DNA of 14,373 nt from a virus. Lineage: Duplodnaviria > Heunggongvirae > Uroviricota > Caudoviricetes. Shown here piece by piece: positions 1 through 14,373 of the stretch (position 1 is the first letter of the stretch; every line of letters starts with the position of its first letter). The position numbers and the translations under genes are program-made. A model generated the notes under the pieces. It was given only the letters and a program-made list of their open reading frames with translations. It ran no database searches and was not told the origin of the DNA. Location of the stretch: IMG/VR virus record IMGVR_UViG_2534681703_000013; one strand, given 5' to 3'.

Positions 1-938
1 GCTCATTGCGGACAAAGACCTTTGCCACTTTCTCAATATCACCCAGCGACCCGACGTTCTCCGGCTTGCCGCCCATCAACTGAAAGGGGATGCGGTGCGC
101 GTCCAGCAGGTCAGCGGCGCTGGCTTTTTTGATATTAAAAAAATCGTCCTTCGTTGCCACTTCACTGAGCGGGATAATTTTAATGCCGTCAGCTTTCCCC
201 TGCGGGGCATAGAGAAACAGATTTTTAAAGTTGTTGCGGCCTTTCGACTTAACCATGTTTTCGCGAAGCATTTCGTATATCGTTGCGGTCCTGCACGGCA
301 TCGGTGACGTACATGATATATCCGGCATGAGCGCCGTTTTCGTAATACTTGCGGCGGAACAGCGTGGCCGACTCATTCAGCCAGGCAGAGTTAAGGGCGC
401 TGAGATATTCCGGCAGGCCGTACAGCTCCTGATTAATATCCGGCTCCAGCAGGTGAAACACGGAGCCGGGCGCGAAAGGTGTCGGCTCGTTGAAGGACGG
501 CACCCACCAGTAAACATCCTCCTCCACGCCACGGCGGGTATATTTTGCCGGTGAGGTTTCCAGTCTGATGACCTTACCGGTGGTGCTGTAACGCTTTTCC
601 AGAAACGCATTACCGAACACCAGAAAATCCAGCACAAAGCGGCTGAAATCCTGCTGGGAAAGCCACGGATGCGGGATAAATGTTGAGGCCAGAATATTAC
701 GTTTGACGTAAATCGGTGAGCTGTGATGCACGGCAGCACGCAGGCTTTTTGCCAGACCGGTAAAGCTGACCGGCGGCTCATACCATCTGCCGTTACTGAT
801 GCACTCGACGTAATCCAGAATGTCACGGCGGTCGAGTACCGGCACCGGCTCGCCAAAGGTGAATGCCTCCATTTTCGGGGCGCTGGCGGTCATTGTTTTT
901 GCCGCAGGTTGCGGTGTTTTCCCTTTTTTCTTGCTCAT
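1..938 (-). pseudogene. Q: Portal protein gpQ, partial at window start and frame-disrupted. N-terminal 229 codons are ORF 249..938; the C-terminal part continues in another frame from about 274 to beyond position 1.
   Basis: ORF track 249..938 (MSKKKGKTPQPAAKTMTAS...) matches recalled P2 gpQ N-terminus (P2 gpQ about 344 aa from memory). My translation of the minus strand 1..274 in a second frame gives an open, protein-like continuation (YEMLRENMVKSKGRNNFKNLFLYAPQGKADGIKIIPLSEVATKDDFFNIKKASAADLLDAHRIPFQLMGGKPENVGSLGDIEKVAKVFVRNE...). Start ATG is at 936-938 and shares one base with the P stop (TGATG). Confidence 0.8.
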
Positions 939-2714
939 CAGTAAAACTCCAGAATGGTGGATGTCAGCGGGGTGCTGATACCGGCGGTGAGTGGCTCATT
1001 TAACAGAGCGTGCATGGTCGCCCAGGCGAGGTCGGCGTGGCTGGCTTCCTCGCTGCGGCTGGCCTCATAGGTGGCGCTGCGTCCGCTGCTGGTCATGGTC
1101 TTGCGGATAGCCATAAACGAGCTGGTGATGTCGGTGGCGCTGACGTCATATTCCAGACAGCCACGGCGGATAACGTCTTTTGCCTTGAGCACCATTGCGG
1201 TTTTCATTTCCGGCGTGTAGCGGATATCGCGCGCGGCGGGATAGAACGAGCGCACGAGCTGGAACACGCCGACACCGAGGCCGGTGGCATCAATACCGAT
1301 GTATTCAACGTTATATTTTTCGGTGAGTTTGCGGATGGATTCTGCCTGGGTGGCAAAGTCCATGCCTTTCCACTGGTGACGCTCAAGTATTCTGAATTTG
1401 CCACCGGCCACCACCGGCGGTGCCAGCACCACGCATCCGGCGCTGTCGCCACGGTGTGACGGGTCGTAACCAATCCAGACCGGGCGGGAGCCGAACGGAT
1501 TGGTGGCAAACGGCGCATAGTCTTCCCATTCTTCCAGCGTGTCGACCATGCAGCGTTGCAGCTCCTCGAACGGGAACACCGACGCCTTGTCGTCAACAAA
1601 TTCACACATGAACAGGTTTTTAAAATCGTCGGCGCTGTTTTCACGTTTGAGCTGCTCAATGTCGAACAGTGTGCAGCCACCTTTCAGGGCGTCCTCAATG
1701 GTGACAATCTGCCGCCACTGGCCGTCCGCACAGAGAAGCCCACCGGCAAGGGCGTTATGACTGACGTCGATTTCCACGCGTTCGGCGGCGCTGGCGCGTC
1801 CCCGGTTAAACAGTTCACCTGACCAGAACGGATAGGCGTCGTGCGCCAGCGTGGACGGGGTGGAGAAATAGGTCGAGCGCAGGTGACTCTGTGAGGCCAT
1901 ACCTGATGCCACCTTACGCAGTACCTGAAAATTCGGGATCCAGAAAATCTCGTCGACGTACAGGTCACCGTTATGGCTCTGTGCGGTGTTGGAGTTGGTG
2001 CCGAGAAAAATCAGTTTTGCGCCGTTATTGCCCAGGACAATCGGGTCACCGGTCAGGTCAACGTCAACCAGCCGGGCAAAGGCGATGATGTATTCGCGGA
2101 ACACATACGCCTGCGTTTTACTGGCCGACAGAAAAATCTGGTTATGACCGGTTTTCAGGGCGCGCAGCAGCGCCTCGCGGGAAAAATAAAACGTTGCGCC
2201 AATCTGGCGGGATTTCAGGATATCGCGGATGCGGTGCTCAAGCCCGGCGCGATACCAGTGCAACTGATAGTCGAAAGACTGCTCAAAGAAAATCTGCTCC
2301 AGCTTTTCGATGGCCTCGTCACTGAAAAAATTCTTTTTCGGTTTGCGACGCCCGCCTTTGTTGCGGTTAGCGACGTTCGGATTAAGGTCTGCCTCGTTGC
2401 CGGTCTGACTGTAACGGTTGACCCGTGCCAGTCGTTCAATCTGGCGTCCGAGCAGGTCAATTTCCTTGAAGTCACCGCCGGTTTTCTGCGGTTTGATGAT
2501 GAGCTGGGTCAGCCGCGCTTCCAGACTCATTTCGACACGGCTGATGGGGGCAACGCTGTCCCAGCCGTCGCGCTGTTTCCAGCTCTGCACCGTCGGGCGT
2601 TTCATCTGCAACATGGCGGCGATCCTGCGGCACGGAAAATCCCTGCCCAGTACCGAGCAGCGCCGCCTGACGACGCGGGTCGTGTAAAAGAGTGGTGTCT
2701 GTGGTGATGGTCAT
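938..2714 (-). CDS. P: Terminase large (ATPase) subunit gpP. The 558-codon ORF 938..2614 is intact, but the likely true N-terminus (ATG at 2712-2714, GAGGT Shine-Dalgarno) is in a different frame, implying a 1-bp indel near 2624-2625.
   Basis: ORF track 938..2614 (558 aa) matches recalled P2 gpP. Frame of ORF 2472..2744 reads MTITTDTTLLHDPRRQAALLGTGQGFSVPQ and then the P frame reads IAAMLQMKRPTVQSW, together a helix-turn-helix-like N-terminus. Spliced length about 591 aa versus about 590 recalled for P2. Confidence 0.85.
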
Positions 2715-2887
2715 GAATACCTCGCCGTGATGAATACACGGCAAGGCTACTGAGTCGCGTCCCGCGATTCGCTAAGGTGCTGTTGTGTCAGTGATAAGCC
2801 ATCCGGGACTGATGGCGGAGGATGCGCATCGTCGGGAAACTGATGCCGACATGTGACTCCTCTAATCACTATTCAGGACTCCTGACA
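2715..2887. promoter_or_regulatory. Divergent late-promoter region between P (leftward) and O (rightward). Contains an imperfect dyad TGT-N12-CCA at 2784..2801 resembling the TGT-N12-ACA activator element of P2 late promoters.
   Basis: 173-bp gap between divergent start codons. Dyad tgtGTCAGTGATAAGcca read directly; its centre lies about 78 nt upstream of the P start codon. Role by analogy to Ogr-dependent P2 late promoters (established knowledge); exact -10 and +1 not determined. Confidence 0.45.
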
Positions 2888-3742
2888 ATGGCAAAAAAAG
2901 TCTCAAAATTCTTTCGTATCGGCGTTGAGGGTGACACCTGTGACGGGCGTGTCATCAGTGCGCAGGATATTCAGGAAATGGCCGAAACCTTTGACCCGCG
3001 TGTCTATGGTTGCCGCATTAACCTGGAACATCTGCGCGGCATCCTGCCTGACGGTATTTTTAAGCGTTATGGCGATGTGGCCGAACTGAAGGCCGAAAAG
3101 ATTGACGATGATTCGGCGCTGAAAGGCAAATGGGCGCTGTTTGCGAAAATCACCCCGACCGATGACCTTATCGCGATGAACAAGGCCGCGCAGAAGGTCT
3201 ACACCTCAATGGAAATTCAGCCGAACTTTGCCAACACCGGCAAATGTTATCTGGTGGGGCTGGCCGTCACCGATGACCCGGCAAGCCTCGGCACGGAATA
3301 CCTGGAATTCTGCCGCACGGCAAAACACAACCCCCTGAACCGCTTCAAATTAAGCCCTGAAAACCTGATTTCAGTGGCAACGCCTGTTGAGCTGGAATTT
3401 GAAGACCTGCCTGAAACCGTGTTCACCGCCCTGACTGAAAAGGTGAAATCCATTTTTGGCCGCAAACAGGCCAGCGATGACGCCCGCCTGAATGACGTGC
3501 ATGAAGCGGTGACCGCTGTTGCTGAACATGTGCAGGAAAAACTGAGTGCCACTGAGCAGCGCCTCGCTGAGATGGAAAACGCCTTTTCCGCACTTAAGCA
3601 GGAGGTGACTGACAGGGCGGATGAAACCAGCCAGGCATTCACCCGCCTGAAAAACAGTCTCGACCACACCGAAAGTCTGACCCAGCAGCGCCGCAGCAAG
3701 GCCACCGGCGGTGGCGGTGACGCCCTGATGACGAACTGCTGA
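2888..3742 (+). CDS. O: Capsid scaffolding protein gpO (284 aa). ORF-track start at 2822 is an upstream extension; ATG at 2888 gives MAKKVSKFFRIGVEGDT.
   Basis: ORF track 2822..3742; internal start gives 284 aa, the length recalled for P2 gpO, with a recognisable N-terminus. Confidence 0.9.
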   Translation: MAKKVSKFFRIGVEGDTCDGRVISAQDIQEMAETFDPRVYGCRINLEHLRGILPDGIFKRYGDVAELKAEKIDDDSALKGKWALFAKITPTDDLIAMNKAAQKVYTSMEIQPNFANTGKCYLVGLAVTDDPASLGTEYLEFCRTAKHNPLNRFKLSPENLISVATPVELEFEDLPETVFTALTEKVKSIFGRKQASDDARLNDVHEAVTAVAEHVQEKLSATEQRLAEMENAFSALKQEVTDRADETSQAFTRLKNSLDHTESLTQQRRSKATGGGGDALMTNC

Positions 3743-3796
3743 CCGGCGTCAGTCCAGGAAAACCTTCACGATTAACCCTTAATTTCAGGAATAACT

Positions 3797-4870
3797 ATGC
3801 GCCAGGAAACCCGCTTTAAATTTAATGCCTACCTGTCCCGTGTTGCCGAACTGAACGGCATCGACGCCGGTGATGTGTCGAAAAAATTCACCGTTGAACC
3901 GTCGGTCACCCAGACCCTGATGAACACCATGCAGGAGTCCTCTGACTTTCTGACCCGCATCAACATTGTGCCGGTCAGCGAAATGAAAGGGGAAAAAATT
4001 GGTATTGGTGTCACCGGCTCCATCGCCAGCACCACCGACACCGCCGGTGGCACCGAGCGTCAGCCGAAGGACTTCTCGAAGCTGGCGTCAAACAAGTACG
4101 AATGCGACCAGATTAACTTCGATTTTTATATCCGCTACAAAACGCTTGACCTGTGGGCGCGTTATCAGGATTTCCAGCTCCGTATCCGTAACGCCATTAT
4201 CAAACGCCAGTCCCTTGATTTAATCATGGCCGGTTTTAACGGCGTGAGGCGTGCCGAAACCTCTGACCGCAGCAGTAATCCGATGCTGCAGGATGTGGCG
4301 GTCGGCTGGCTGCAGAAATACCGCAATGAAGCCCCGGCGCGCGTGATGAGCAAGGTCACTGACGAGGAAGGGCACACCACCTCTGAGGTTATCCGCGTGG
4401 GTAAGGGCGGTGATTATGCCAGCCTTGATGCACTGGTGATGGATGCGACCAACAACCTGATTGAGCCGTGGTATCAGGAAGACCCTGACCTTGTGGTGAT
4501 TGTGGGGCGTCAGCTACTGGCGGACAAGTATTTCCCCATCGTCAACAAGGAGCAGGACAACAGCGAAATGCTGGCCGCTGACGTCATCATCAGCCAGAAA
4601 CGCATCGGTAACCTGCCGGCGGTACGCGTCCCGTACTTCCCGGCGGATGCGATGCTCATCACGAAGCTGGAAAACCTGTCCATCTACTACATGGATGACA
4701 GCCATCGCCGCGTGATTGAGGAAAACCCGAAACTCGACCGCGTGGAGAACTACGAGTCAATGAACATTGATTACGTGGTGGAAGACTACGCCGCCGGTTG
4801 TCTGGTGGAAAAAATTAAGGTCGGTGACTTCTCCACACCGACTAAAGTGACCGCAGAGCCGGGAGCGTAA
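3797..4870 (+). CDS. N: Major capsid protein gpN (357 aa).
   Basis: ORF track 3797..4870; sequence and length match recalled P2 gpN; AGGA ribosome-binding site upstream. Confidence 0.93.
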   Translation: MRQETRFKFNAYLSRVAELNGIDAGDVSKKFTVEPSVTQTLMNTMQESSDFLTRINIVPVSEMKGEKIGIGVTGSIASTTDTAGGTERQPKDFSKLASNKYECDQINFDFYIRYKTLDLWARYQDFQLRIRNAIIKRQSLDLIMAGFNGVRRAETSDRSSNPMLQDVAVGWLQKYRNEAPARVMSKVTDEEGHTTSEVIRVGKGGDYASLDALVMDATNNLIEPWYQEDPDLVVIVGRQLLADKYFPIVNKEQDNSEMLAADVIISQKRIGNLPAVRVPYFPADAMLITKLENLSIYYMDDSHRRVIEENPKLDRVENYESMNIDYVVEDYAAGCLVEKIKVGDFSTPTKVTAEPGA

Positions 4871-4873
4871 CCG

Positions 4874-5617
4874 ATGACGAGTCCCGCACAGCGCCACATG
4901 ATGCGGGTCTCGGCAGCGATGACCGCGCAGCGGGACGCCGCCCCGCTGCGACATGCAACTGTCTATGAGCAGATGCTGGTCAAGCTGGCCGCAGACCAGC
5001 GCACACTGAAAGCGATTTATTCAAAAGAGCTGAAGGCCGCGAAAAAACGCGAACTGCTGCCGTTCTGGTTGCCGTGGGTGAACGGCGTGCTGGAGCAGGG
5101 CAAAGGTGCACAGGATGACATTCTGATGACGGTCATGCTGTGGCGTCTGGATACCGGCGATATTGCCGGTGCGCTGGAGATTGCCCGTTATGCCCTGAAG
5201 TACGGTCTGACCATGCCGGGTAAACACCGCCGCACCCCGCCGTACATGTTCACCGAGGAGGTGGCGCTCGCGGCCATGCGCGCCCACGCTGCCGGTGAGT
5301 CTGTGGATACCCGCCTGCTGACGGAGACCCTTGCACTGACCGCCACGGCAGACATGCCTGATGAAGTGCGCGCAAAGCTGCACAAAATCACCGGTCTGTT
5401 TCTGCGTGACGCTGGTGATGCCGCCGGTGCGCTGGCGCACCTGCAACGTGCGACACAGCTCGACTGTCAGGCAGGCGTCAAAAAAGAGATTGAACGACTG
5501 GAGCGGGAGCTGAAACCGAAGCCGGAGCCGCAGCCAAAAGCGGCCACCCGCGCCCCGCGTAAGACCCGGAGCGTGACACCGGCAAAACGTGGACGCCCGA
5601 AAAAGAAAGCCAGTTAA
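4874..5617 (+). CDS. M: Terminase small/endonuclease subunit gpM (247 aa), with a basic KR-rich C-terminus.
   Basis: ORF track 4874..5617; length and sequence match recalled P2 gpM; starts 4 nt after the N stop. Confidence 0.9.
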   Translation: MTSPAQRHMMRVSAAMTAQRDAAPLRHATVYEQMLVKLAADQRTLKAIYSKELKAAKKRELLPFWLPWVNGVLEQGKGAQDDILMTVMLWRLDTGDIAGALEIARYALKYGLTMPGKHRRTPPYMFTEEVALAAMRAHAAGESVDTRLLTETLALTATADMPDEVRAKLHKITGLFLRDAGDAAGALAHLQRATQLDCQAGVKKEIERLERELKPKPEPQPKAATRAPRKTRSVTPAKRGRPKKKAS

Positions 5618-5716
5618 CAACCGAATGCGCCCCGCGCCAGGGCGGCACGCCGGTCAGTGAGGGTGAATCACCTGACACTGCACCGGCGTCCACCGCCCGA
5701 CTTTTCAGAGGTAGTC

Positions 5717-6226
5717 ATGATGACGCTGATTATTCCGCGAAAGGAGGCTCCCGTGTCCGGTGAGGGTACGGTGGTCATCCCGCAACCGGCAGGCGACGAG
5801 CCGGTGATTAAAAACACGTTCTTTTTTCCCGATATCGACCCGAAGCGCGTCCGGGAACGTATGCGCCTTGAGCAGACCGTCGCCCCCGCCCGTCTGCGTG
5901 AGGCCATCAAGTCAGGCATGGCGGAGACGAATGCGGAGCTGTACGAGTACCGCGAACAGAAAATTGCCGCCGGTTTTACGCGTCTGGCGGACGTCCCGGC
6001 GGACGACATCGACGGTGAAAGCATCAAAGTTTTTTACTACGAGCGCGCCGTGTGTGCGATGGCGACCGCGTCGCTTTATGAGCGTTATCGCGGCGTGGAT
6101 GCCAGTGCGAAAGGCGACAAGAAGGCTGACAGCATTGACAGCACCATTGATGAGCTGTGGCGGGATATGCGCTGGGCGGTGGCGCGTATCCAGGACAAGC
6201 CGCGCTGCATCGTGAGTCAAATCTGA
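5717..6226 (+). CDS. L: Head completion/stabilisation protein gpL (169 aa). ORF-track start at 5657 is an upstream extension; ATG at 5717 (MMTLIIPRKEAP) follows a GAGGT Shine-Dalgarno.
   Basis: ORF track 5657..6226; internal ATG gives 169 aa, the P2 gpL length; stop overlaps the X start (TGATG). Confidence 0.88.
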   Translation: MMTLIIPRKEAPVSGEGTVVIPQPAGDEPVIKNTFFFPDIDPKRVRERMRLEQTVAPARLREAIKSGMAETNAELYEYREQKIAAGFTRLADVPADDIDGESIKVFYYERAVCAMATASLYERYRGVDASAKGDKKADSIDSTIDELWRDMRWAVARIQDKPRCIVSQI

Positions 6227-6429
6227 TGAAGACCTTTGCGCTACAGGGCGACACGCTCGACGCCATTTGTGTCCGGTATTACGGGCGCACTGAGGGCGTG
6301 GTTGAGACCGTGCTCGCCGCAAATCCGGGACTGGCTGAACTGGGCGCGGTGCTGCCACACGGCACCGCCGTCGAACTGCCCGACGTTCAGACCGCGCCCG
6401 TGGCTGAAACTGTCAATCTGTGGGAGTAA
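6226..6429 (+). CDS. X: Tail protein gpX (67 aa, LysM-like).
   Basis: ORF track 6157..6429 contains MKTFALQGDTLDAICVRYYGRTEG... starting at 6226; 67 aa matches P2 gpX. Confidence 0.88.
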   Translation: MKTFALQGDTLDAICVRYYGRTEGVVETVLAANPGLAELGAVLPHGTAVELPDVQTAPVAETVNLWE

Positions 6430-6432
6430 CGC

Positions 6433-6714
6433 ATGACAGCAGAAGAAAAAAGCGTCCTGTCGCTTTTCATGATTGGGGTGCTGATTGTTGTCGGCAAGGT
6501 GCTTGCCGGTGGTGAACCCATCACCCCGCGTCTGTTTATCGGGCGCATGTTGCTCGGTGGTTTTGTCTCGATGGTTGCCGGTGTTGTTCTGGTGCAGTTT
6601 CCTGACCTGTCACTGCCTGCGGTGTGCGGCATCGGCTCCATGCTGGGTATCGCCGGTTATCAGGTGATTGAGATTGCCATTCAGCGCCGCTTTAAGGGCA
6701 GGGGGAAACCGTAA
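6433..6714 (+). CDS. Y: Holin gpY (93 aa).
   Basis: ORF track 6433..6714; hydrophobic segments plus charged C-terminus (RRFKGRGKP); length matches P2 gpY. Confidence 0.9.
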   Translation: MTAEEKSVLSLFMIGVLIVVGKVLAGGEPITPRLFIGRMLLGGFVSMVAGVVLVQFPDLSLPAVCGIGSMLGIAGYQVIEIAIQRRFKGRGKP

Positions 6715-7211
6715 TGCCGGTAATTAACACGCATCAGAATATCGCCGCCTTTCTCGACATGCTGGCCGTGTCCGAAGGGACGGCGAATCATCCGCTGACG
6801 AAAAACCGGGGCTATGACGTGATAGTCACCGGACTGGACGGAAAGCCGGAAATTTTCACCGACTACAGTGACCACCCGTTCGCGCATGGCCGACCGGCGA
6901 AGGTGTTTAACCGTCGCGGTGAAAAATCCACGGCCTCCGGTCGCTATCAGCAGCTTTACCTGTTCTGGCCGCACTACCGCAAACAGCTTGCCCTGCCGGA
7001 TTTCAGTCCGTTGTCACAGGACAGACTCGCCATTCAGTTGATCCGCGAACGCGGTGCACTGGATGACATCCGGGCGGGACGCATTGAGCGCGCCATTTCA
7101 CGCTGTCGCAATATCTGGGCGTCCCTGCCGGGTGCCGGTTACGGTCAGCGTGAGCATTCACTGGAAAAACTGGTCACCGTCTGGCGTACTGCTGGCGGCG
7201 TACCGGCTTAA
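6714..7211 (+). CDS. K: Endolysin gpK (165 aa).
   Basis: ORF track 6714..7211; matches recalled P2 gpK; start overlaps the Y stop (TAATG). Confidence 0.9.
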   Translation: MPVINTHQNIAAFLDMLAVSEGTANHPLTKNRGYDVIVTGLDGKPEIFTDYSDHPFAHGRPAKVFNRRGEKSTASGRYQQLYLFWPHYRKQLALPDFSPLSQDRLAIQLIRERGALDDIRAGRIERAISRCRNIWASLPGAGYGQREHSLEKLVTVWRTAGGVPA

Positions 7212-7225
7212 ACGGAGTAAACACC

Positions 7226-7651
7226 ATGAAGAAATTATCCCTTTCACTGATGCTGAACGTGTCGCTGGCGCTGATGTTGGCACTGTCCCTGATTTACCCG
7301 CAGAGCGTAGCCGTCAATTTTGTCGCTGCCTGGGCGATTCTGGCGACGGTTATCTGTGTGGTTGCCGGTGGTGTCGGCGTGTATGCCACTGAGTATGTGC
7401 TGGAACGCTACGGGCGGGAGCTGCCGCCGGAATCGCTGGCCGTGAAGATTGTCACGGCGCTGTTTTTGCAGCCGGTGCCGTGGCGCAGACGGGCGGCGGC
7501 TCTGGTGGTGATGGTGGTGACGTTTATCTCGCTGGTCGCTGCCGGGTGGATTTTTACTGCGCTGATTTACCTCGTGGCGTCGCTGTTTTTCCGGCTGATA
7601 CGTACGGCCTGCCGTCAGCGTTTTGAGGGGCGGGAACCATGTCAAAACTGA
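7226..7651 (+). CDS. lysA: LysA, membrane protein affecting lysis timing (141 aa).
   Basis: ORF track 7226..7651; multiple hydrophobic helices; position and length as in P2. Confidence 0.85.
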   Translation: MKKLSLSLMLNVSLALMLALSLIYPQSVAVNFVAAWAILATVICVVAGGVGVYATEYVLERYGRELPPESLAVKIVTALFLQPVPWRRRAAALVVMVVTFISLVAAGWIFTALIYLVASLFFRLIRTACRQRFEGREPCQN

Positions 7652-8082
7652 TGATTGTGCTGGTTGTGTTGTTATCACTGGCGGTGGCGGGGCTGTTTCT
7701 GGCGAAGCATGAAAACGCCAGCCTGCGCGCCTCGCTGGACAGGGCGAACAACGTCGCCAGCGGGCAGCAGACGACCATCACCGTGCTGAAAAATCAGCTT
7801 CATGTTGCCCTCACCAGGGCAGACAAAAACGAGCTGGCGCAGGTGGCTCTGCGTCAGGAACTGGAGAACGCCGCGAAGCGTGAAGCACAGCGCGAGAAAA
7901 CCATCACGAGGTTACTTAATGAAAACGAAGATTTTCGCCGCTGGTACGGCGCTGACCTGCCTGATGCTGTGCGCCGGTTGCACCAGCGCCCCGCCTGCAC
8001 CGACGCCAGTGATTGTCCACAACGCCTGCCCGAAAGTGAGTCTTTGCCCGATGCCGGGCAGCGACCCGGAGACGAACGGTGA
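7639..8082 (+). CDS. lysB: LysB, Rz-like inner-membrane spanin (147 aa) with N-terminal transmembrane segment and coiled-coil region.
   Basis: ORF track 7639..8082; N-terminal hydrophobic stretch MSKLMIVLVVLLSLAVAGLFLA; position after lysA. Confidence 0.85.
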   Translation: MSKLMIVLVVLLSLAVAGLFLAKHENASLRASLDRANNVASGQQTTITVLKNQLHVALTRADKNELAQVALRQELENAAKREAQREKTITRLLNENEDFRRWYGADLPDAVRRLHQRPACTDASDCPQRLPESESLPDAGQRPGDER

Positions 8083-8209
8083 TTTAAGTGCCGATATCCG
8101 GCAGCTTGAGAACGCGCTGGCGCGCTGTGCCAGCCAGGTAAAAATGATTAAATACTGTCAGGACGAAAACGATGCTCAAACCCGACAGCCTGCGCAGGGC
8201 GCTGACTGA
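7919..8209 (+). CDS. lysC: LysC, Rz1-like outer-membrane lipoprotein spanin (96 aa), nested in the +1 frame of lysB and extending past it.
   Basis: Within ORF 7802..8209, ATG at 7919 gives MKTKIFAAGTALTCLMLCAGC with a lipobox-like LCAGC; proline-rich after the Cys; 96 aa as recalled for P2 LysC. Confidence 0.8.
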   Translation: MKTKIFAAGTALTCLMLCAGCTSAPPAPTPVIVHNACPKVSLCPMPGSDPETNGDLSADIRQLENALARCASQVKMIKYCQDENDAQTRQPAQGAD

Positions 8210-8639
8210 TGCCGTCACGGTGCTGAAAACTAACCCCGATATGCTGCGGATATTCGTGGATAACGGGAGTATTGCCTCCACGCTGGCGGCGTCGTTGTCA
8301 TTCGAAAAGCGTTACACGCTCAATGTCATTGTGACCGACTTTACCGGTGATTTTGACCTGCTCATTGTGCCAGTGCTGGCGTGGCTGCGGGAAAATCAGC
8401 CCGACATCATGACCACTGACGAAGGTCAGAAAAAGGGCTTCACGTTTTATGCAGACATCAACAATGACAGCAGCTTTGATATCAGTATCAGCCTGATGCT
8501 GACCGAGCGCACGCTGGTCAGTGAGGTGGACGGCGCACTGCATGTGAAGAATATCCCGGAACCTCCGCCGCCGGAGCCGGTCACCCGCCCGGTGGAGCTT
8601 TATATCAATGGCGAACTGGTGAGCAAGTGGGATGAATGA
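8172..8639 (+). CDS. R: Tail completion protein gpR (155 aa).
   Basis: ORF track 8172..8639; matches recalled P2 gpR length and sequence. Confidence 0.88.
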   Translation: MLKPDSLRRALTDAVTVLKTNPDMLRIFVDNGSIASTLAASLSFEKRYTLNVIVTDFTGDFDLLIVPVLAWLRENQPDIMTTDEGQKKGFTFYADINNDSSFDISISLMLTERTLVSEVDGALHVKNIPEPPPPEPVTRPVELYINGELVSKWDE

Positions 8640-9084
8640 GTTTAAGCGTTTTGAAGACCGGCTGACCGGACTTATTGAATCGCTGTCACCGTCAGGGCGT
8701 CGGCGACTGAGCGCCGAACTGGCGAAACGTCTGCGGCAGAGTCAGCAGCGCCGGGTGATGGCACAGAAAGCCCCGGACGGCACACCCTACGCACCACGCC
8801 AGCAGCAGAGCGCCAGAAAAAAGACCGGTCGCGTTAAGCGAAAAATGTTTGCGAAACTTATCACCAGTCGTTTTTTGCATATCCGCGCCAGCCCGGAGCA
8901 GGCATCAATGGAGTTTTACGGCGGGAAGTCGCCGAAAATCGCCAGTGTGCATCAGTTCGGTCTGTCGGAAGAAAACCGGAAAGACGGTAAGAAAATTGAT
9001 TATCCGGCGCGTCCTCTGCTCGGCTTTACCGGTGAGGATGTGCAGATGATTGAAGAGATTATCCTGGCTCACCTCGACCGTTAG
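8632..9084 (+). CDS. S: Tail completion protein gpS (150 aa).
   Basis: ORF track 8632..9084; start overlaps the R end by 8 nt; length matches P2 gpS. Confidence 0.88.
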   Translation: MNEFKRFEDRLTGLIESLSPSGRRRLSAELAKRLRQSQQRRVMAQKAPDGTPYAPRQQQSARKKTGRVKRKMFAKLITSRFLHIRASPEQASMEFYGGKSPKIASVHQFGLSEENRKDGKKIDYPARPLLGFTGEDVQMIEEIILAHLDR

Positions 9085-9116
9085 TTGTGCCATTCCCGAC
9101 ACCTCATCGTCACATT

Positions 9117-9138
9117 GCCGCCGGTATGACCCGGCGGC
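9117..9138 (+). other. Perfect hairpin GCCGCCGG-tatgac-CCGGCGGC (8-bp stem, 6-nt loop) in the S-V intergenic region; possible operon-boundary terminator or 5'-UTR structure of the V transcript.
   Basis: Read directly from sequence; no U-tract follows, so intrinsic-terminator status is uncertain. Confidence 0.35.
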
Positions 9139-9150
9139 ATCCTTCCCGTT

Positions 9151-9786
9151 ATGAACACTCTCGCAAATATTCAGGAACTCGCGCGCGCACTGCGCAACAT
9201 GATCCGCACCGGCATTATCGTCGAAACCGACCTTAACGCCGGTCGCTGCCGTGTGCAGACTGGCGGCATGTGCACCGACTGGCTTCAGTGGCTGACCCAT
9301 CGTGCCGGGCGTTCGTGCACATGGTGGGCACCTTCCGTGGGGGAACAGGTGCTGATTCTGGCCGTGGGCGGTGAACTCGACACGGCGTTCGTTCTGCCGG
9401 GGATTTATTCCGGCGATAACCCTGCGCCGTCTGCGTCGGCGGATGCACTGCATATCCGTTTCCCTGACGGGGCGGTGATTGAGTATGAACCCGAAACCAG
9501 TGCACTCACGGTAAGCGGAATTAAAACGGCCAGCGTAACGGCTTCTGATTCTGTTACTGCCACGGTGCCGGTGGTCATGGTGAAAGCGTTAACCCGCATC
9601 ACCCTGGACACACCGGAGGTGGTCTGCACCAACAGGCTGATTACCGGCACGCTGGAAGTGCAGAAGGGCGGGACGATGCGCGGCAACATTGAACACACCG
9701 GCGGTGAACTCTCATCAAACGGTAAGGTACTGCACACCCATAAACACCCCGGCGACAGCGGCGGCACAACCGGGAGTCCTTTATGA
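9151..9786 (+). CDS. V: Baseplate spike/assembly protein gpV (211 aa).
   Basis: ORF track 9151..9786; matches recalled P2 gpV. Confidence 0.9.
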   Translation: MNTLANIQELARALRNMIRTGIIVETDLNAGRCRVQTGGMCTDWLQWLTHRAGRSCTWWAPSVGEQVLILAVGGELDTAFVLPGIYSGDNPAPSASADALHIRFPDGAVIEYEPETSALTVSGIKTASVTASDSVTATVPVVMVKALTRITLDTPEVVCTNRLITGTLEVQKGGTMRGNIEHTGGELSSNGKVLHTHKHPGDSGGTTGSPL

Positions 9787-11043: not shown

Positions 11044-11647
11044 TTCGCGACTGCTGCCGACCGGCTCATCACCGCTTGAAGTCGCCGCCGCAAAAGCCTG
11101 TGCGGAAATTGAAAAAACGCCGGTCAGTATTCGTGAGCTGTGGAACCCGGATACCTGTCCGGCAAATCTGCTGCCGTGGCTGGCGTGGTCATTTTCGGTT
11201 GACCGCTGGGATGATAAGTGGCCGGAAGCGACAAAACGCGCTGTTATCCGCGATGCGTATTTCATTCACTGCCATAAGGGCACTATAGGTGCAATCCGCC
11301 GTGTGGTGGAGCCGCTCGGCTATCTGATTGAGGTGAGGGAGTGGTGGCAGCTCAACGAGGAGCCGGGGACGTTCCGCATCGTTGTTGGCGTGCTTGAGCA
11401 GGGTATTACCGAGGAAATGTATCAGGAGCTGGAGCGTCTCGTTGCTGATGCAAAACCTGCAAGCCGCCATCTGACAGGACTGGCTATCAGTTTAAGTACA
11501 ACCGGTAACATTTTTGCCGGTGCAGGATGCTATCACGGCGACGCCCTGACGGTTTATCCCTACACCCCGGAGGCCATTATTGTCGGAGGGGATTATTTCC
11601 CGGCCTCGGCCATTCATTTAATTGATAACCTGAGAGTAAACGCATGA
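11036..11647 (+). CDS. I: Baseplate/tail-fibre attachment protein gpI (203 aa; longer than the about 176 aa I recall for P2).
   Basis: ORF track 11036..11647; start overlaps the J end, stop overlaps the H start (ATGA). Confidence 0.85.
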   Translation: MSDSRLLPTGSSPLEVAAAKACAEIEKTPVSIRELWNPDTCPANLLPWLAWSFSVDRWDDKWPEATKRAVIRDAYFIHCHKGTIGAIRRVVEPLGYLIEVREWWQLNEEPGTFRIVVGVLEQGITEEMYQELERLVADAKPASRHLTGLAISLSTTGNIFAGAGCYHGDALTVYPYTPEAIIVGGDYFPASAIHLIDNLRVNA

Positions 11648-12972
11648 CAGTGAAATACTACGCCATTCTGACTAATCAGGGCGCAGCACGGCTGGCTAAC
11701 GCGACGATGCTCGGCAGTAAGCTGAATCTGACGCAAATGGCCGTTGGTGATGCGAATGGTGTCTTGCCGACACCAGACCCGGCACAGACAAAACTGATTA
11801 ACCAGAAACGCATCGCGCCGCTGAATCTTCTGAGTGTTGATCCGAACAACCAGAGCCAGATTATTGCGGAGCAAATCATCCCTGAGAACGAGGGCGGATT
11901 CTGGATCCGTGAGATTGGGCTTTATGATGATGAAGGCGTACTCATTGCGGTGGCGAACTGCCCGGAAACGTACAAACCGCAGTTGCAGGAAGGCAGTGGT
12001 CGTACCCAGACTATCCGCATGATTCTGGTTGTCACGAATACCGAAGCCATCACGCTGAAAATCGACCCGTCGGTGGTACTGGCGACCCGTAAATACGTGG
12101 ATGATAAAGTCCTGGAATTAAAGCTGTATGTGGATGACCAGATGAGAAACCACATTGCCGCACAGGATCCTCATACCCAGTATGCACAGAAACATAATCC
12201 GACATTTACCGGAGAACCAAAAGCGCCGACGCCTGCCGCAGGAAATAACACCACGCGGATTGCGACCACTGCGTTTGTACAGGCCGCTATTACCGCTCTG
12301 ATTAACGGTGCGCCTGACACGCTGGACACACTGAAAGAAATTGCCGCAGCTATCAACAATGACCCGAAATTCAGTACCACCATTAACAATGCGCTGTCAG
12401 GTAAGCAGCCACTGGATGAGACGCTGACTCATTTGAGTGGAAAGGATGTTGCCGGTCTTCTCGCATACCTTGGTTTGGGAGAAGGCTCTGCATTACCTGT
12501 TGGTGTGCCTGTTCCATGGCCTTCAGCCACACCGCCAACAGGCTGGCTGAAATGCAACGGTGCAGCTTTTTCTGCTGAAGAATACCCGGAACTGGCAAAG
12601 GCTTACCCGACAAATAAATTGCCTGATTTACGCGGTGAATTTATTCGTGGCTGGGATGACGGGCGTGGTATTGATGCTGTACGTGCCTTGCTAAGTCTTC
12701 AGAATGGAGGAGTGGAATCACACACCCACCAAGGGCAGCTCTTCAGAGTTAGTGATTATCGTACAAAAGAAATACCAGCATCAGAAGTTATGGGAAGAGG
12801 ATATATTGCAAGCCTGACGCCGGGTGCTGATAGCCCACTTGATTTTGATGATTATTCTGTATCTTCTAATCCAAATGGATATTTTGTCGGGAATCAGAGA
12901 ACAACAGCATATGGGATAAATGAAACCCGTCCACGGAATATTGCATTTAACTATATCGTGAGGGCTGCATAA
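11644..12972 (+). CDS. H: Tail fibre protein gpH (442 aa): constant N-terminal part followed by a variable C-terminal receptor-binding part containing a phage tail-collar-like motif (VGVPVPWPSATPPTGWLKCNGAAFSAEEYPELAKAYP...PDLRGEFIRGWDDGRGID).
   Basis: ORF track 11644..12972; position after I; collar-like motif recognised by eye; much shorter than recalled P2 gpH (about 669 aa), so mosaic. Confidence 0.85.
   Translation: MTVKYYAILTNQGAARLANATMLGSKLNLTQMAVGDANGVLPTPDPAQTKLINQKRIAPLNLLSVDPNNQSQIIAEQIIPENEGGFWIREIGLYDDEGVLIAVANCPETYKPQLQEGSGRTQTIRMILVVTNTEAITLKIDPSVVLATRKYVDDKVLELKLYVDDQMRNHIAAQDPHTQYAQKHNPTFTGEPKAPTPAAGNNTTRIATTAFVQAAITALINGAPDTLDTLKEIAAAINNDPKFSTTINNALSGKQPLDETLTHLSGKDVAGLLAYLGLGEGSALPVGVPVPWPSATPPTGWLKCNGAAFSAEEYPELAKAYPTNKLPDLRGEFIRGWDDGRGIDAVRALLSLQNGGVESHTHQGQLFRVSDYRTKEIPASEVMGRGYIASLTPGADSPLDFDDYSVSSNPNGYFVGNQRTTAYGINETRPRNIAFNYIVRAA
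12458..12483. other. Candidate site-specific recombination (inversion crossover) site: TTCTCGCATACC-TT-GGTTTGGGAGAA, 12-bp imperfect inverted half-sites around a 2-bp core, Hin/Gin/Cin/Pin type.
   Basis: Read directly. The half-sites match 10/12 as inverted repeats and fit the TTxTCxxAAACC half-site pattern of hix/gix sites. It lies inside H, encoding LLAYLGLGE, just upstream of the collar domain (constant/variable boundary). Confidence 0.6.
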
Positions 12973-13574
12973 TGGATAACGCTGTATTAAATAGCGAGTT
13001 TATTGCTACAAAGGCGGGGAATATTACCGTCTATAACTATGATGGCGAAACACGGGAATATATTTCCACATCAACTGAATATCTTGCTGTGGGTGTCGGT
13101 ATTCCGGCATTTTCCTGTCTGGAGGCACCTGGCATATACAAGGCTGGTTATGCAATTTGTCGCTCTGTGGATTTAAATTCATGGGAATATGTGCCAGACC
13201 ATCGCGGTGAAATCGTCTATAACACCGAAACGGGAGACGCCAAAGAAATCACAGCTCCGGGTGATTACCCCGAAAATACAACCACTATCGCCCCATTAAC
13301 GCCATACGATAAATGGGATGGTGAGAAATGGGTGACCGATACTGAGGCACAGCATTGCGCCGCAGTAGACGCGGCAGAAGCACAGCGCCAGTCACTGATT
13401 GATGCTGCAATGGCTTCCATCAGTCTGATTCAGCTGAAATTACAGGCCGGGCGGAGGCTGACGCAGGCAGAAACCACCCGCCTTAACGCCGTGCTGGATT
13501 ACATTGACACGGTGACGGCAACAGATACCAGCACCGCGCCGGATGTCATCTGGCCTGAACTGCCGGAGGTGTAG
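12972..13574 (+). CDS. G: Tail fibre assembly protein gpG (Tfa, 200 aa).
   Basis: ORF track 12972..13574; TAATG overlap with H; conserved Tfa C-terminal motif DTSTAPDVIWPELPEV. Confidence 0.85.
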   Translation: MDNAVLNSEFIATKAGNITVYNYDGETREYISTSTEYLAVGVGIPAFSCLEAPGIYKAGYAICRSVDLNSWEYVPDHRGEIVYNTETGDAKEITAPGDYPENTTTIAPLTPYDKWDGEKWVTDTEAQHCAAVDAAEAQRQSLIDAAMASISLIQLKLQAGRRLTQAETTRLNAVLDYIDTVTATDTSTAPDVIWPELPEV

Positions 13575-13989
13575 GCCATTCAATATCGGGGGCTGTTGAT
13601 GTATCAACACGCATCAGCAGCACACGGTATTTCTTCCATTGGGTGAGAGTTGAAGTTTCTTCATCAGTTGCGATACCAGCATCAACAGCATCCTGACGCC
13701 AGGATATTTCACTGTCAGCTTTTGCACGAAATGTGGCTTTCATGTTTTCTGCATCTGATATTTTCTGTTCTGGTGAAAGCGGCGGCTCATCAACCCATGC
13801 AAGGGTCCCTGAAACCATTCCCAGCATTTTTCCTGTTGGCTTATTTCCCCCATTAAATCTGACAGCATCCTCATCGCTGATTTCAATACCATCCTGCGGC
13901 CATGTCCCCTCCTTGATATAACTTTCATATAGCGCTGCGTTGTAGATTGCATTTTCGGACGGGCTGTAAACACTTTTAACTTTATTCAT
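13546..13989 (-). CDS. Alternative tail fibre assembly protein (Tfa', 147 aa) on the opposite strand, converging on G and overlapping it by 29 bp.
   Basis: ORF track 13546..13989; C-terminal motif VDTSTAPDIEWPTPP parallels that of gpG; GGGAGA Shine-Dalgarno 7-8 nt upstream of the ATG. Confidence 0.8.
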   Translation of the reverse strand: MNKVKSVYSPSENAIYNAALYESYIKEGTWPQDGIEISDEDAVRFNGGNKPTGKMLGMVSGTLAWVDEPPLSPEQKISDAENMKATFRAKADSEISWRQDAVDAGIATDEETSTLTQWKKYRVLLMRVDTSTAPDIEWPTPPAVQAR

Positions 13990-13993
13990 TCTG

Positions 13994-14373
13994 TTATCTC
14001 CCTTTCGCTATATAGCAAAGATTAAACCCACCGACGCCTGACATACGGGCTGTAAAACCCGTTCTTGAAGTACCAGTTGAGTTAACTCCATAAGCAGGCA
14101 TGGTTGTTGGAGAAAGCAGAGACTCCTGGATATCTGCCATTGTCAGTGTAATTGATTCGACCCGCGCGGGGAAAGGTAGCGGGAAAACAACATTCGTCCC
14201 TGTCTGTCCAACGGGGAAACCGAAAATACCCCATTGTCGTAATTACCCCTTCCGGCCCCTTACTCCATCCAGATTTAGGAATCGGCCAGTCTGCTGCTCC
14301 AGAGTGCCCCGTTGTAAAACTACTCATATCTGGTACTTGCCCGGTATCCGTTCCGACGTTCCTCGTTGCCGCT
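13994..14373 (-). CDS. Alternative tail-fibre C-terminal exon (Sv'-like), partial: open from beyond the window end. Two frames are open; the likely real C-terminus (...FPVGQTGTNVVFPLPFPARVESITLTMADIQESLLSPTTMPAYGVNSTGTSRTGFTARMSGVGGFNLCYIAKGR) ends at 13994, 4 nt before the Tfa' start.
   Basis: ORF track 14082..14327 is in a frame with no stop up to position 14373 (AATRNVGTDTGQVPDMSSFTTGHSGAADWPIPKSGW...). A second frame is open 13994..14242 and ends immediately upstream of Tfa'. Implies a 1-bp indel between 14085 and 14242. Confidence 0.55.

Follow-up and report, generated by a model that had tools for sequence, protein, structure and literature searches.

The end of the contig studied here represents, with a probability of about 0.9, three-quarters (the left part) of an invertible tail-fibre segment of the Pin/Gin type, ~1.9 kb long between the crossover cores, that belongs to a P2-like (Peduovirus) prophage of E. 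coli. In the scheme that we propose, a 26-bp site divides gene H between a constant part and a C-terminal exon that is variable, and the segment consists of two cassettes arranged tail-to-tail, one comprising a StfE-like exon with a Collar domain (Sv) and Tfa, the other a gp53-like exon (Sv') and Tfa'. An invertase encoded just beyond the contig end would flip this ~1.9-kb segment by means of an inverted second site, after which the late promoter pV and the constant part of H would be read into Sv'-Tfa' and no longer into Sv-Tfa. Serine invertases of the Gin/Pin family pair inverted 26-bp sites and exchange the strands at the central dinucleotide. Each cassette would supply a receptor-binding tip together with the matching Caudo_TAP chaperone, so the virions produced after the flip would bear a different tip and would have a different host range. 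This last consequence we infer from the host-range switching precedents of Mu, P1 and carotovoricin, as cited in PMC4272514.

The preliminary description of this DNA had already interpreted the inverted cassette as a host-range switch, and this interpretation is supported by our analysis. The system is known in kind, and near-identical copies of it are present in many sequenced E. coli genomes. It carries little weight as a discovery, being a classic phage host-range switch whose behaviour in P2-like prophages was shown experimentally before. Its practical meaning lies elsewhere. Annotators label the spare exon as a free-standing gene and leave the invertible segment unmarked, while draft contigs tend to end at the crossover site; recognition of the switch explains both these labels and these contig ends. 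Any host-range prediction for this prophage has two receptor-binding tips to consider.

The expressed and the spare tail-fibre cassettes

The window, by which we mean the whole analysed stretch of 14,373 bases, is the entire draft contig AQEY01000031.1 of the assembly GCA_000355295.1 and contains a P2-like late region from the portal gene to H and G. It is colinear with the annotated P2-like prophage of E. coli HCM-28C-2 (NZ_AP038246), the identity being 98.3% over all 14,373 bases. Both the P2 late gene order and the P2-type H N-terminus (Pfam Phage_tail_fib) are present, which marks the stretch as a P2-like (Peduovirus) late region, and this P2-like element has the full head-gene set.

The whole tail-fibre gene H occupies positions 11644-12972 of the plus strand and encodes a 442-aa protein, identical in 21 public contigs, with the Phage_tail_fib N-terminus and a Collar domain in its C-terminal part. 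Its constant part (Sc; 11644..12471, plus strand) extends up to the crossover core and comprises the baseplate-attachment domain and the shaft (Phage_tail_fib at residues 1-150, E = 1.6e-62). The variable exon in the expressed position, Sv (12472..12972, plus strand), encodes a StfE-like tip (Pfam Collar at residues 287-334, E = 3.5e-15) that is 58% identical to StfE of e14. It is followed by the gene for the chaperone of Sv, Tfa (12972..13574, plus strand; Pfam Caudo_TAP, E = 3.9e-32), which is similar to P2 G and TfaE and 88% identical to the latter protein of e14. The state expressed in the contig is Sv-Tfa, i.e., a StfE-like Collar tip with a TfaE-like chaperone.

The second tail-fibre assembly gene noticed in the preliminary description, here referred to as Tfa' (13546..13989, minus strand), is indeed an intact ORF of 147 aa whose product, the chaperone for the alternative tip, matches Pfam Caudo_TAP with E = 9.8e-33. 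Its DNA shows no difference from that of a complete genome 99.6% identical to the window (L001), where the protein is annotated as WP_001544307.1. Tfa' is 41% identical to TfaP of e14 and 43% to Mu U, in both cases over the C-terminal half only. The two chaperone genes converge on each other tail-to-tail, as had been described, and the 3' ends of Tfa' and of the plus-strand Tfa/G (12972-13574) overlap by 29 nt. Each variable exon therefore has its own chaperone on the 3' side, and both Tfa genes match Caudo_TAP at E ~1e-32.

The alternative variable exon, Sv' (13994..14373, minus strand), would be silent in the present orientation. Its stop codon TAA at 13994-13996, 4 nt from which Tfa' starts, and the run-off of its other end from the contig are as originally reported, but its frame is broken by an extra C at 14238, which the preliminary description overlooked. 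The intact Sv' of the relatives matches Pfam Gp53-like_C (E = 3.7e-10), and a weak match to the structure of the AP22 gp53 fibre tip (4mtm, E = 0.0014) was also obtained. The homology searches proposed earlier have placed Tfa' and intact Sv' in a tail-fibre chaperone family and a fibre-tip family, respectively. A search of NCBIfam with the four fibre and chaperone proteins gave no matches, and with the invertase of the relatives it gave only matches far below the curated cut-offs.

The crossover sites and the sequence beyond the contig end

A pattern scan located a 26-bp crossover site of the structure TTCTCGCATACC-TT-GGTTTGGGAGAA inside H at 12458..12483, where the window reads TTCTCGCATACCTTGGTTTGGGAGAA. 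The core TT lies at 12470-12471, and the site sits at the boundary between the constant and the variable parts of the fibre gene. Against the e14 P segment, whose left site reads CTCTCGAAAACCTTGGTTTGGGAGAA, it has three mismatches, all of them in the outer half, and the inner half-site is identical. The search of the window alone for a partner of this site yielded nothing meaningful because the contig stops before the partner: the last bases are ...CGTTGCCGCT, and only the first 2 nt (CT, 14372..14373) of the right inverted-repeat arm are included.

The partner is found in the relatives. In L001, the left and the right sites pair as a 27-nt inverted repeat, 81% complementary, with 1,886 nt between the arms. 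The right arm, CTTCTCCCAAACCAACGTTTATGAAAA, is located at L001 11728-11754, and the end of the window aligns to L001 11729. Base for base, the right site of L001 equals its counterpart in the e14 P segment, TTCTCCCAAACCAACGTTTATGAAAA. Beyond the window, L001, L002 and L006-L011 all have it where expected from the alignment, and L012 has it in part; the relatives have just one inverted pair of sites. The last of these, the draft contig L012 (JAAPPN010000001.1), encodes the identical H and ends exactly at the core dinucleotide (...CTTCTCCCAAACCAA); the end of the window is 13 nt short of this point. Contig ends at the site can be taken as a hint of assembly-graph breaks due to mixed orientations in the culture, and as a hint only, since an invertase gene repeated elsewhere in the genome could also cause such breaks.

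Downstream of the right site, L001, L002 and all six of the further-extending contigs with identical H carry a gene for a 197-aa invertase and then the P2 sheath gene FI, past which the same prophage goes on in these relatives with FII, E, T, U, D and ogr. The 197-aa protein contains the Pfam domains Resolvase (E = 8e-53) and HTH_7 (E = 1e-12), which makes it a small serine recombinase; its match to the Mu Gin structures 3uj3 and 4m6f has E = 1e-94, and it shares 87% identity with PinE and 80% with Mu Gin. With a single inverted pair of sites in the relatives and a serine resolvase/invertase, not a tyrosine enzyme, as the recombinase, the system does not belong to the Rci-type shufflons, which have multiple sfx sites. 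Judging from these relatives, the right site and the invertase are probably present in the strain of the window too, and the expected continuation past 14373 would have TCTCCCAAACCAACGTTTATGAAAA at or near its start, followed by the 197-aa invertase and FI.

The Din-family switches are expected to have a Fis-bound recombinational enhancer within the 5'-terminal part of their invertase genes. In L001, the 5' end of this gene shows strong nucleotide conservation with e14 pin and Mu gin, including the 15-mer GTRTCAACAAATGAC. A crude scan of this 5' end for pairs of Fis-like 15-mers ~48 bp apart revealed no pair conserved among L001, e14 and Mu.

The downstream sequence was also the evidence that the preliminary description had named as decisive. 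It had maintained that the minus-strand exon lacks an N-terminal region of its own, and in the relatives Sv' does extend for only ~130 codons up to the crossover site, without the Phage_tail_fib N-terminal domain; beyond the site in L001, upstream of Sv', there are only 14 codons and an ATG (L001 11755-11809). The minus-strand genes could, in principle, belong to a separate, oppositely oriented prophage or form a complete independent fibre gene with no recombination switch. We found nothing in favour of this reading, which is conceivable solely since the 5' end of the exon is not reached within the window. An exon devoid of the N-terminus, followed by an invertase and then by FI and the subsequent late genes of the same P2-like prophage, excludes the independent fibre gene for the relatives, and for the window we consider such an arrangement to have practically no chance of being correct. 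The complete, independently expressed fibre gene lacking any site or invertase, which had been put forward as the finding that would overturn the switch, is not what the relatives contain; they have the inverted site and the Gin/Pin-type serine invertase in front of their own FI.

The NCBI pipeline calls the silent exon a free-standing 143-aa 'gp53-like domain-containing protein', a call enabled by the ATG outside the right site. This free-standing call of the L001 silent exon mirrors the e14 stfE 'pseudogene' (MPFACYFFIFINVGLGE...). When L001 9000-12600 was scanned for sigma-70 promoter and terminator consensus sequences, we detected no promoter-like site upstream of Sv', and the same scan of the same region found no convincing terminator between the convergent Tfa genes; both are weak negatives.

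Both orientations of the segment and the integrity of the spare exon

The claim that inversion joins the constant part of the fibre to either exon was borne out by an in-silico inversion of L001 between the two core dinucleotides. In the inverted sequence, H residues 1-278 are in frame with Sv' (...LAYLGLGE-AATRNVG...AKGR*), which is followed by Tfa'; the junction and the end of the fusion read ...GLGE-AATRNVGTDTGQ...GFNLCYIAKGR*. The frame of the window at the junction is the same as that of L001 (frame 1).

The predicted 900-bp inverted junction is found in four other complete E. coli genomes at 92-99% identity and 97-100% coverage. For two of these, L004 and L005 (strains 144 and 90-9281), the annotated prophage is the same P2-like one; its cassettes have changed places and its invertase is present. 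Over 5 kb, the inverted L001 gives a single alignment to L005 (98.5%) and to L004 (97.0%), whereas the native L001 aligns to them in three pieces, with the middle one reversed and the breaks at the two sites. Since the inverted L001 is colinear with two genomes and the junction is spanned in two more, both orientations exist in nature. Their occurrence is shown here across genomes, and active flipping in the strain of the window we infer.

A survey with the Sv'-site-invertase stretch as the query, in which the crossover core is at positions 392-395, found Sv' silent beside the invertase in 18 records and fused to the P2-type H in 9 records, where the similarity ends at 392-395. About 27 further E. 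coli records have a match that ends at query position 397, five bases past the core. Their initial classification as 'silent' copies was dropped: in the record that was inspected, the exon is fused to the constant part of another prophage. In this record (L018 2899-5681, NZ_CP042298), the Sv'-Tfa' cassette (99% identical) is on a short constant part, in a prophage with an e14/Mu-type baseplate that is integrated at dusA and encodes an invertase of its own, with the other cassette silent beside it. The presence of the same Sv'-Tfa' in an e14/Mu-type prophage indicates that the cassette is shared between phage lineages.

In L004 (3624-6426) and L005 (3624-6396), the annotation gives a frameshift for each gene of the invertible segment, while the flanking prophage genes are clean. 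These frameshifts could be a consensus artefact produced by reads of mixed orientation in long-read assemblies.

The frameshift of Sv' in the window deserves separate consideration. With the extra C at 14238, the reading frame changes 46 codons in from the window end, so that Sv' is not one open frame: the site-proximal part (14373 to ~14239) would meet a stop at 14082, and the part encoding the tip (~14237-13994) is in a different frame. Of the 56 matching E. coli records from complete genomes, none has this C, and in the three best matches among them it is the sole difference from the window. It is likewise absent from the other contigs encoding the identical H (7/7), in which Sv' is intact, as it is in L001. 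The window thus has no intact second tip, and it owes this to a private insertion. If the frameshift were real, the flipped state would yield a defective fibre.

Relative to its relatives, the window has further changes: a private single-base insertion at ~276 that frameshifts the portal gene, four such insertions at ~2622-2655 that frameshift the terminase gene, and a 4-nt deletion at 3745-3750, which is intergenic and past the gpO stop. The four terminase insertions do not occur in any of the 1,512 E. coli records that match there. The portal and terminase insertions suggest either errors of the draft sequence or a decaying prophage. At 14238, a draft-sequence error is more likely than real decay, since the C is private to this contig and other private insertions occur in the portal and terminase genes.

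It should nevertheless be considered that the switch may be frozen or one-way, i.e., that the architecture is invertible but the spare exon is truly frameshifted in a decaying prophage, so that the inversion toggles between a functional and a defective fibre or no longer matters. The extra C itself and the portal and terminase insertions in the same contig are what such decay would look like, and genuine decay of Sv' does exist: in L002 (strain TUM2330) the exon is disrupted by several indels and no CDS is annotated. With Sv' frameshifted in the window and carrying indels in L002, some copies of the switch are no longer two-way. However, the absence of the 14238 C from the complete-genome records and from the seven other identical-H contigs, and that of the terminase insertions from every matching record, speak against decay in this strain. 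Private insertions scattered over essential genes in one draft assembly resemble sequence errors more than biology. We therefore regard the frozen state as unlikely, although it is the most serious competitor of the two-way switch, which we continue to prefer.

Comparison with known invertible tail-fibre systems

The preliminary description compared the layout to Mu Sv-U / U'-Sv' and to the P1 C segment. The Mu layout is indeed the same, but it is to the e14 P segment with Pin, and not to Mu G or P1 C, that the module is most closely related. The P segment of E. coli K-12 (stfP-tfaP / tfaE-stfE / pinE) has the same gene order, with the constant part, an exon with its Tfa, the inverted Tfa with its exon, and the invertase, and the convergent overlap of tfaP and tfaE is 29 nt, as it is for the two tfa genes of the window. 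The two systems have the same right site and, on the left, the same inner half-site, and the proteins show the similarity already mentioned (invertase 87%, Tfa/TfaE 88%, Sv/StfE 58%). The differences concern the ends of the fibre and the host element. The StfP N-terminus is short, whereas the constant part in the window is the long P2-type H N-terminus (Phage_tail_fib); the second cassette here encodes a gp53-like tip, and its Tfa' is just 41% identical to TfaP, in the C-terminal half only; and e14 is a lambdoid remnant, while the present module resides in a P2-like prophage. In essence, the system amounts to a P segment of the e14 type placed where P2 has fun(Z).

In the Mu G segment with Gin (NC_000929), the order Sc-Sv-U / U'-Sv' / gin is the same as here, and the invertase, 80% identical, is also encoded on the plus strand, directly outside the right site. 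The 26-bp gix sites of Mu share the AAACC-NN-GGTTT core with the sites described here. The G segment is longer (~3.1 kb by the annotated boundaries versus ~1.9 kb), as are its variable exons (~335 and 320 aa in Mu, 167 and ~130 aa here). BLASTP of the fibre exons against Mu S and S' found no similarity at E <= 1e-3, and the match of Tfa' to Mu U spans 63 residues only.

The likeness to e14 raises the question of whether the cassette serves the bacterium, either through a chimeric fibre that blocks the adsorption of other phages, as reported for StfE2 of e14, or by allowing a defective, tailocin-like P2 particle to change its killing spectrum. StfE2 reportedly arises when the e14 P segment inverts, and it keeps T2 from adsorbing (PMC12529663). 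The tip expressed from our contig is StfE-like and its chaperone is close to TfaE, and in the window frameshifts affect the portal and terminase genes, the tail and lysis genes being open. On the other hand, the fibre gene lies in the P2 late operon V-W-J-I-H-G, which is silent in lysogens and Ogr-dependent, the full set of head genes is present, and the private frameshifts are probably sequence errors. A function domesticated by the host is, in our opinion, very improbable. The same small chance applies to its stronger form, in which the private portal, terminase and Sv' frameshifts would all be real and the prophage would produce head-defective, tail-proficient particles, with the cassette acting as an on/off control of the killing spectrum or as a StfE2-like adsorption block; any such host-serving role presupposes that the private frameshifts are real and that lysogens express the late genes. 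A phage host-range switch remains the preferred explanation.

P2-like prophages with invertible fibre segments have been described before. Salmonella Fels-2 with Fin is one of them. In EPEC E2348/69, invertible segments of P2-like prophages flip in culture, both orientations having been observed by sequencing and PCR (Goldberg et al. 2014, PMC4272514). By their description, the EPEC prophages represent the same phage family and the same kind of switch; one of the loci is a three-site, four-variant system, whereas the relatives of the window have two sites.

Between the portal gene and H-G, the late genes of canonical P2 follow the same order, which is also true of those that begin with FI; its H is 669 aa long, compared with 442 aa here. 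The preliminary description was mistaken in placing FI of canonical P2 directly after G: a terminator, fun(Z) and pF lie between these genes in P2, which has neither an invertase nor a second cassette there. In the prophage considered here, the G-FI slot is filled by Tfa', Sv', the right site and the invertase, these last two as seen in the relatives. A DNA invertase was reported to be frequent in the P2 Z/fun hotspot, with the adjacent genes inverted (bioRxiv 10.1101/2024.10.15.618418, 2024).

Another variable point of these prophages was noticed between S and V, where an extra minus-strand hypothetical gene (~247-261 aa) is found in some relatives (L002 5681-6424, L004 304-1047 and L008 2639-3424). 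The corresponding interval of the window (~9084-9151) is without the insertion, and the insertion point in the relatives is possibly a cargo or defence hotspot.
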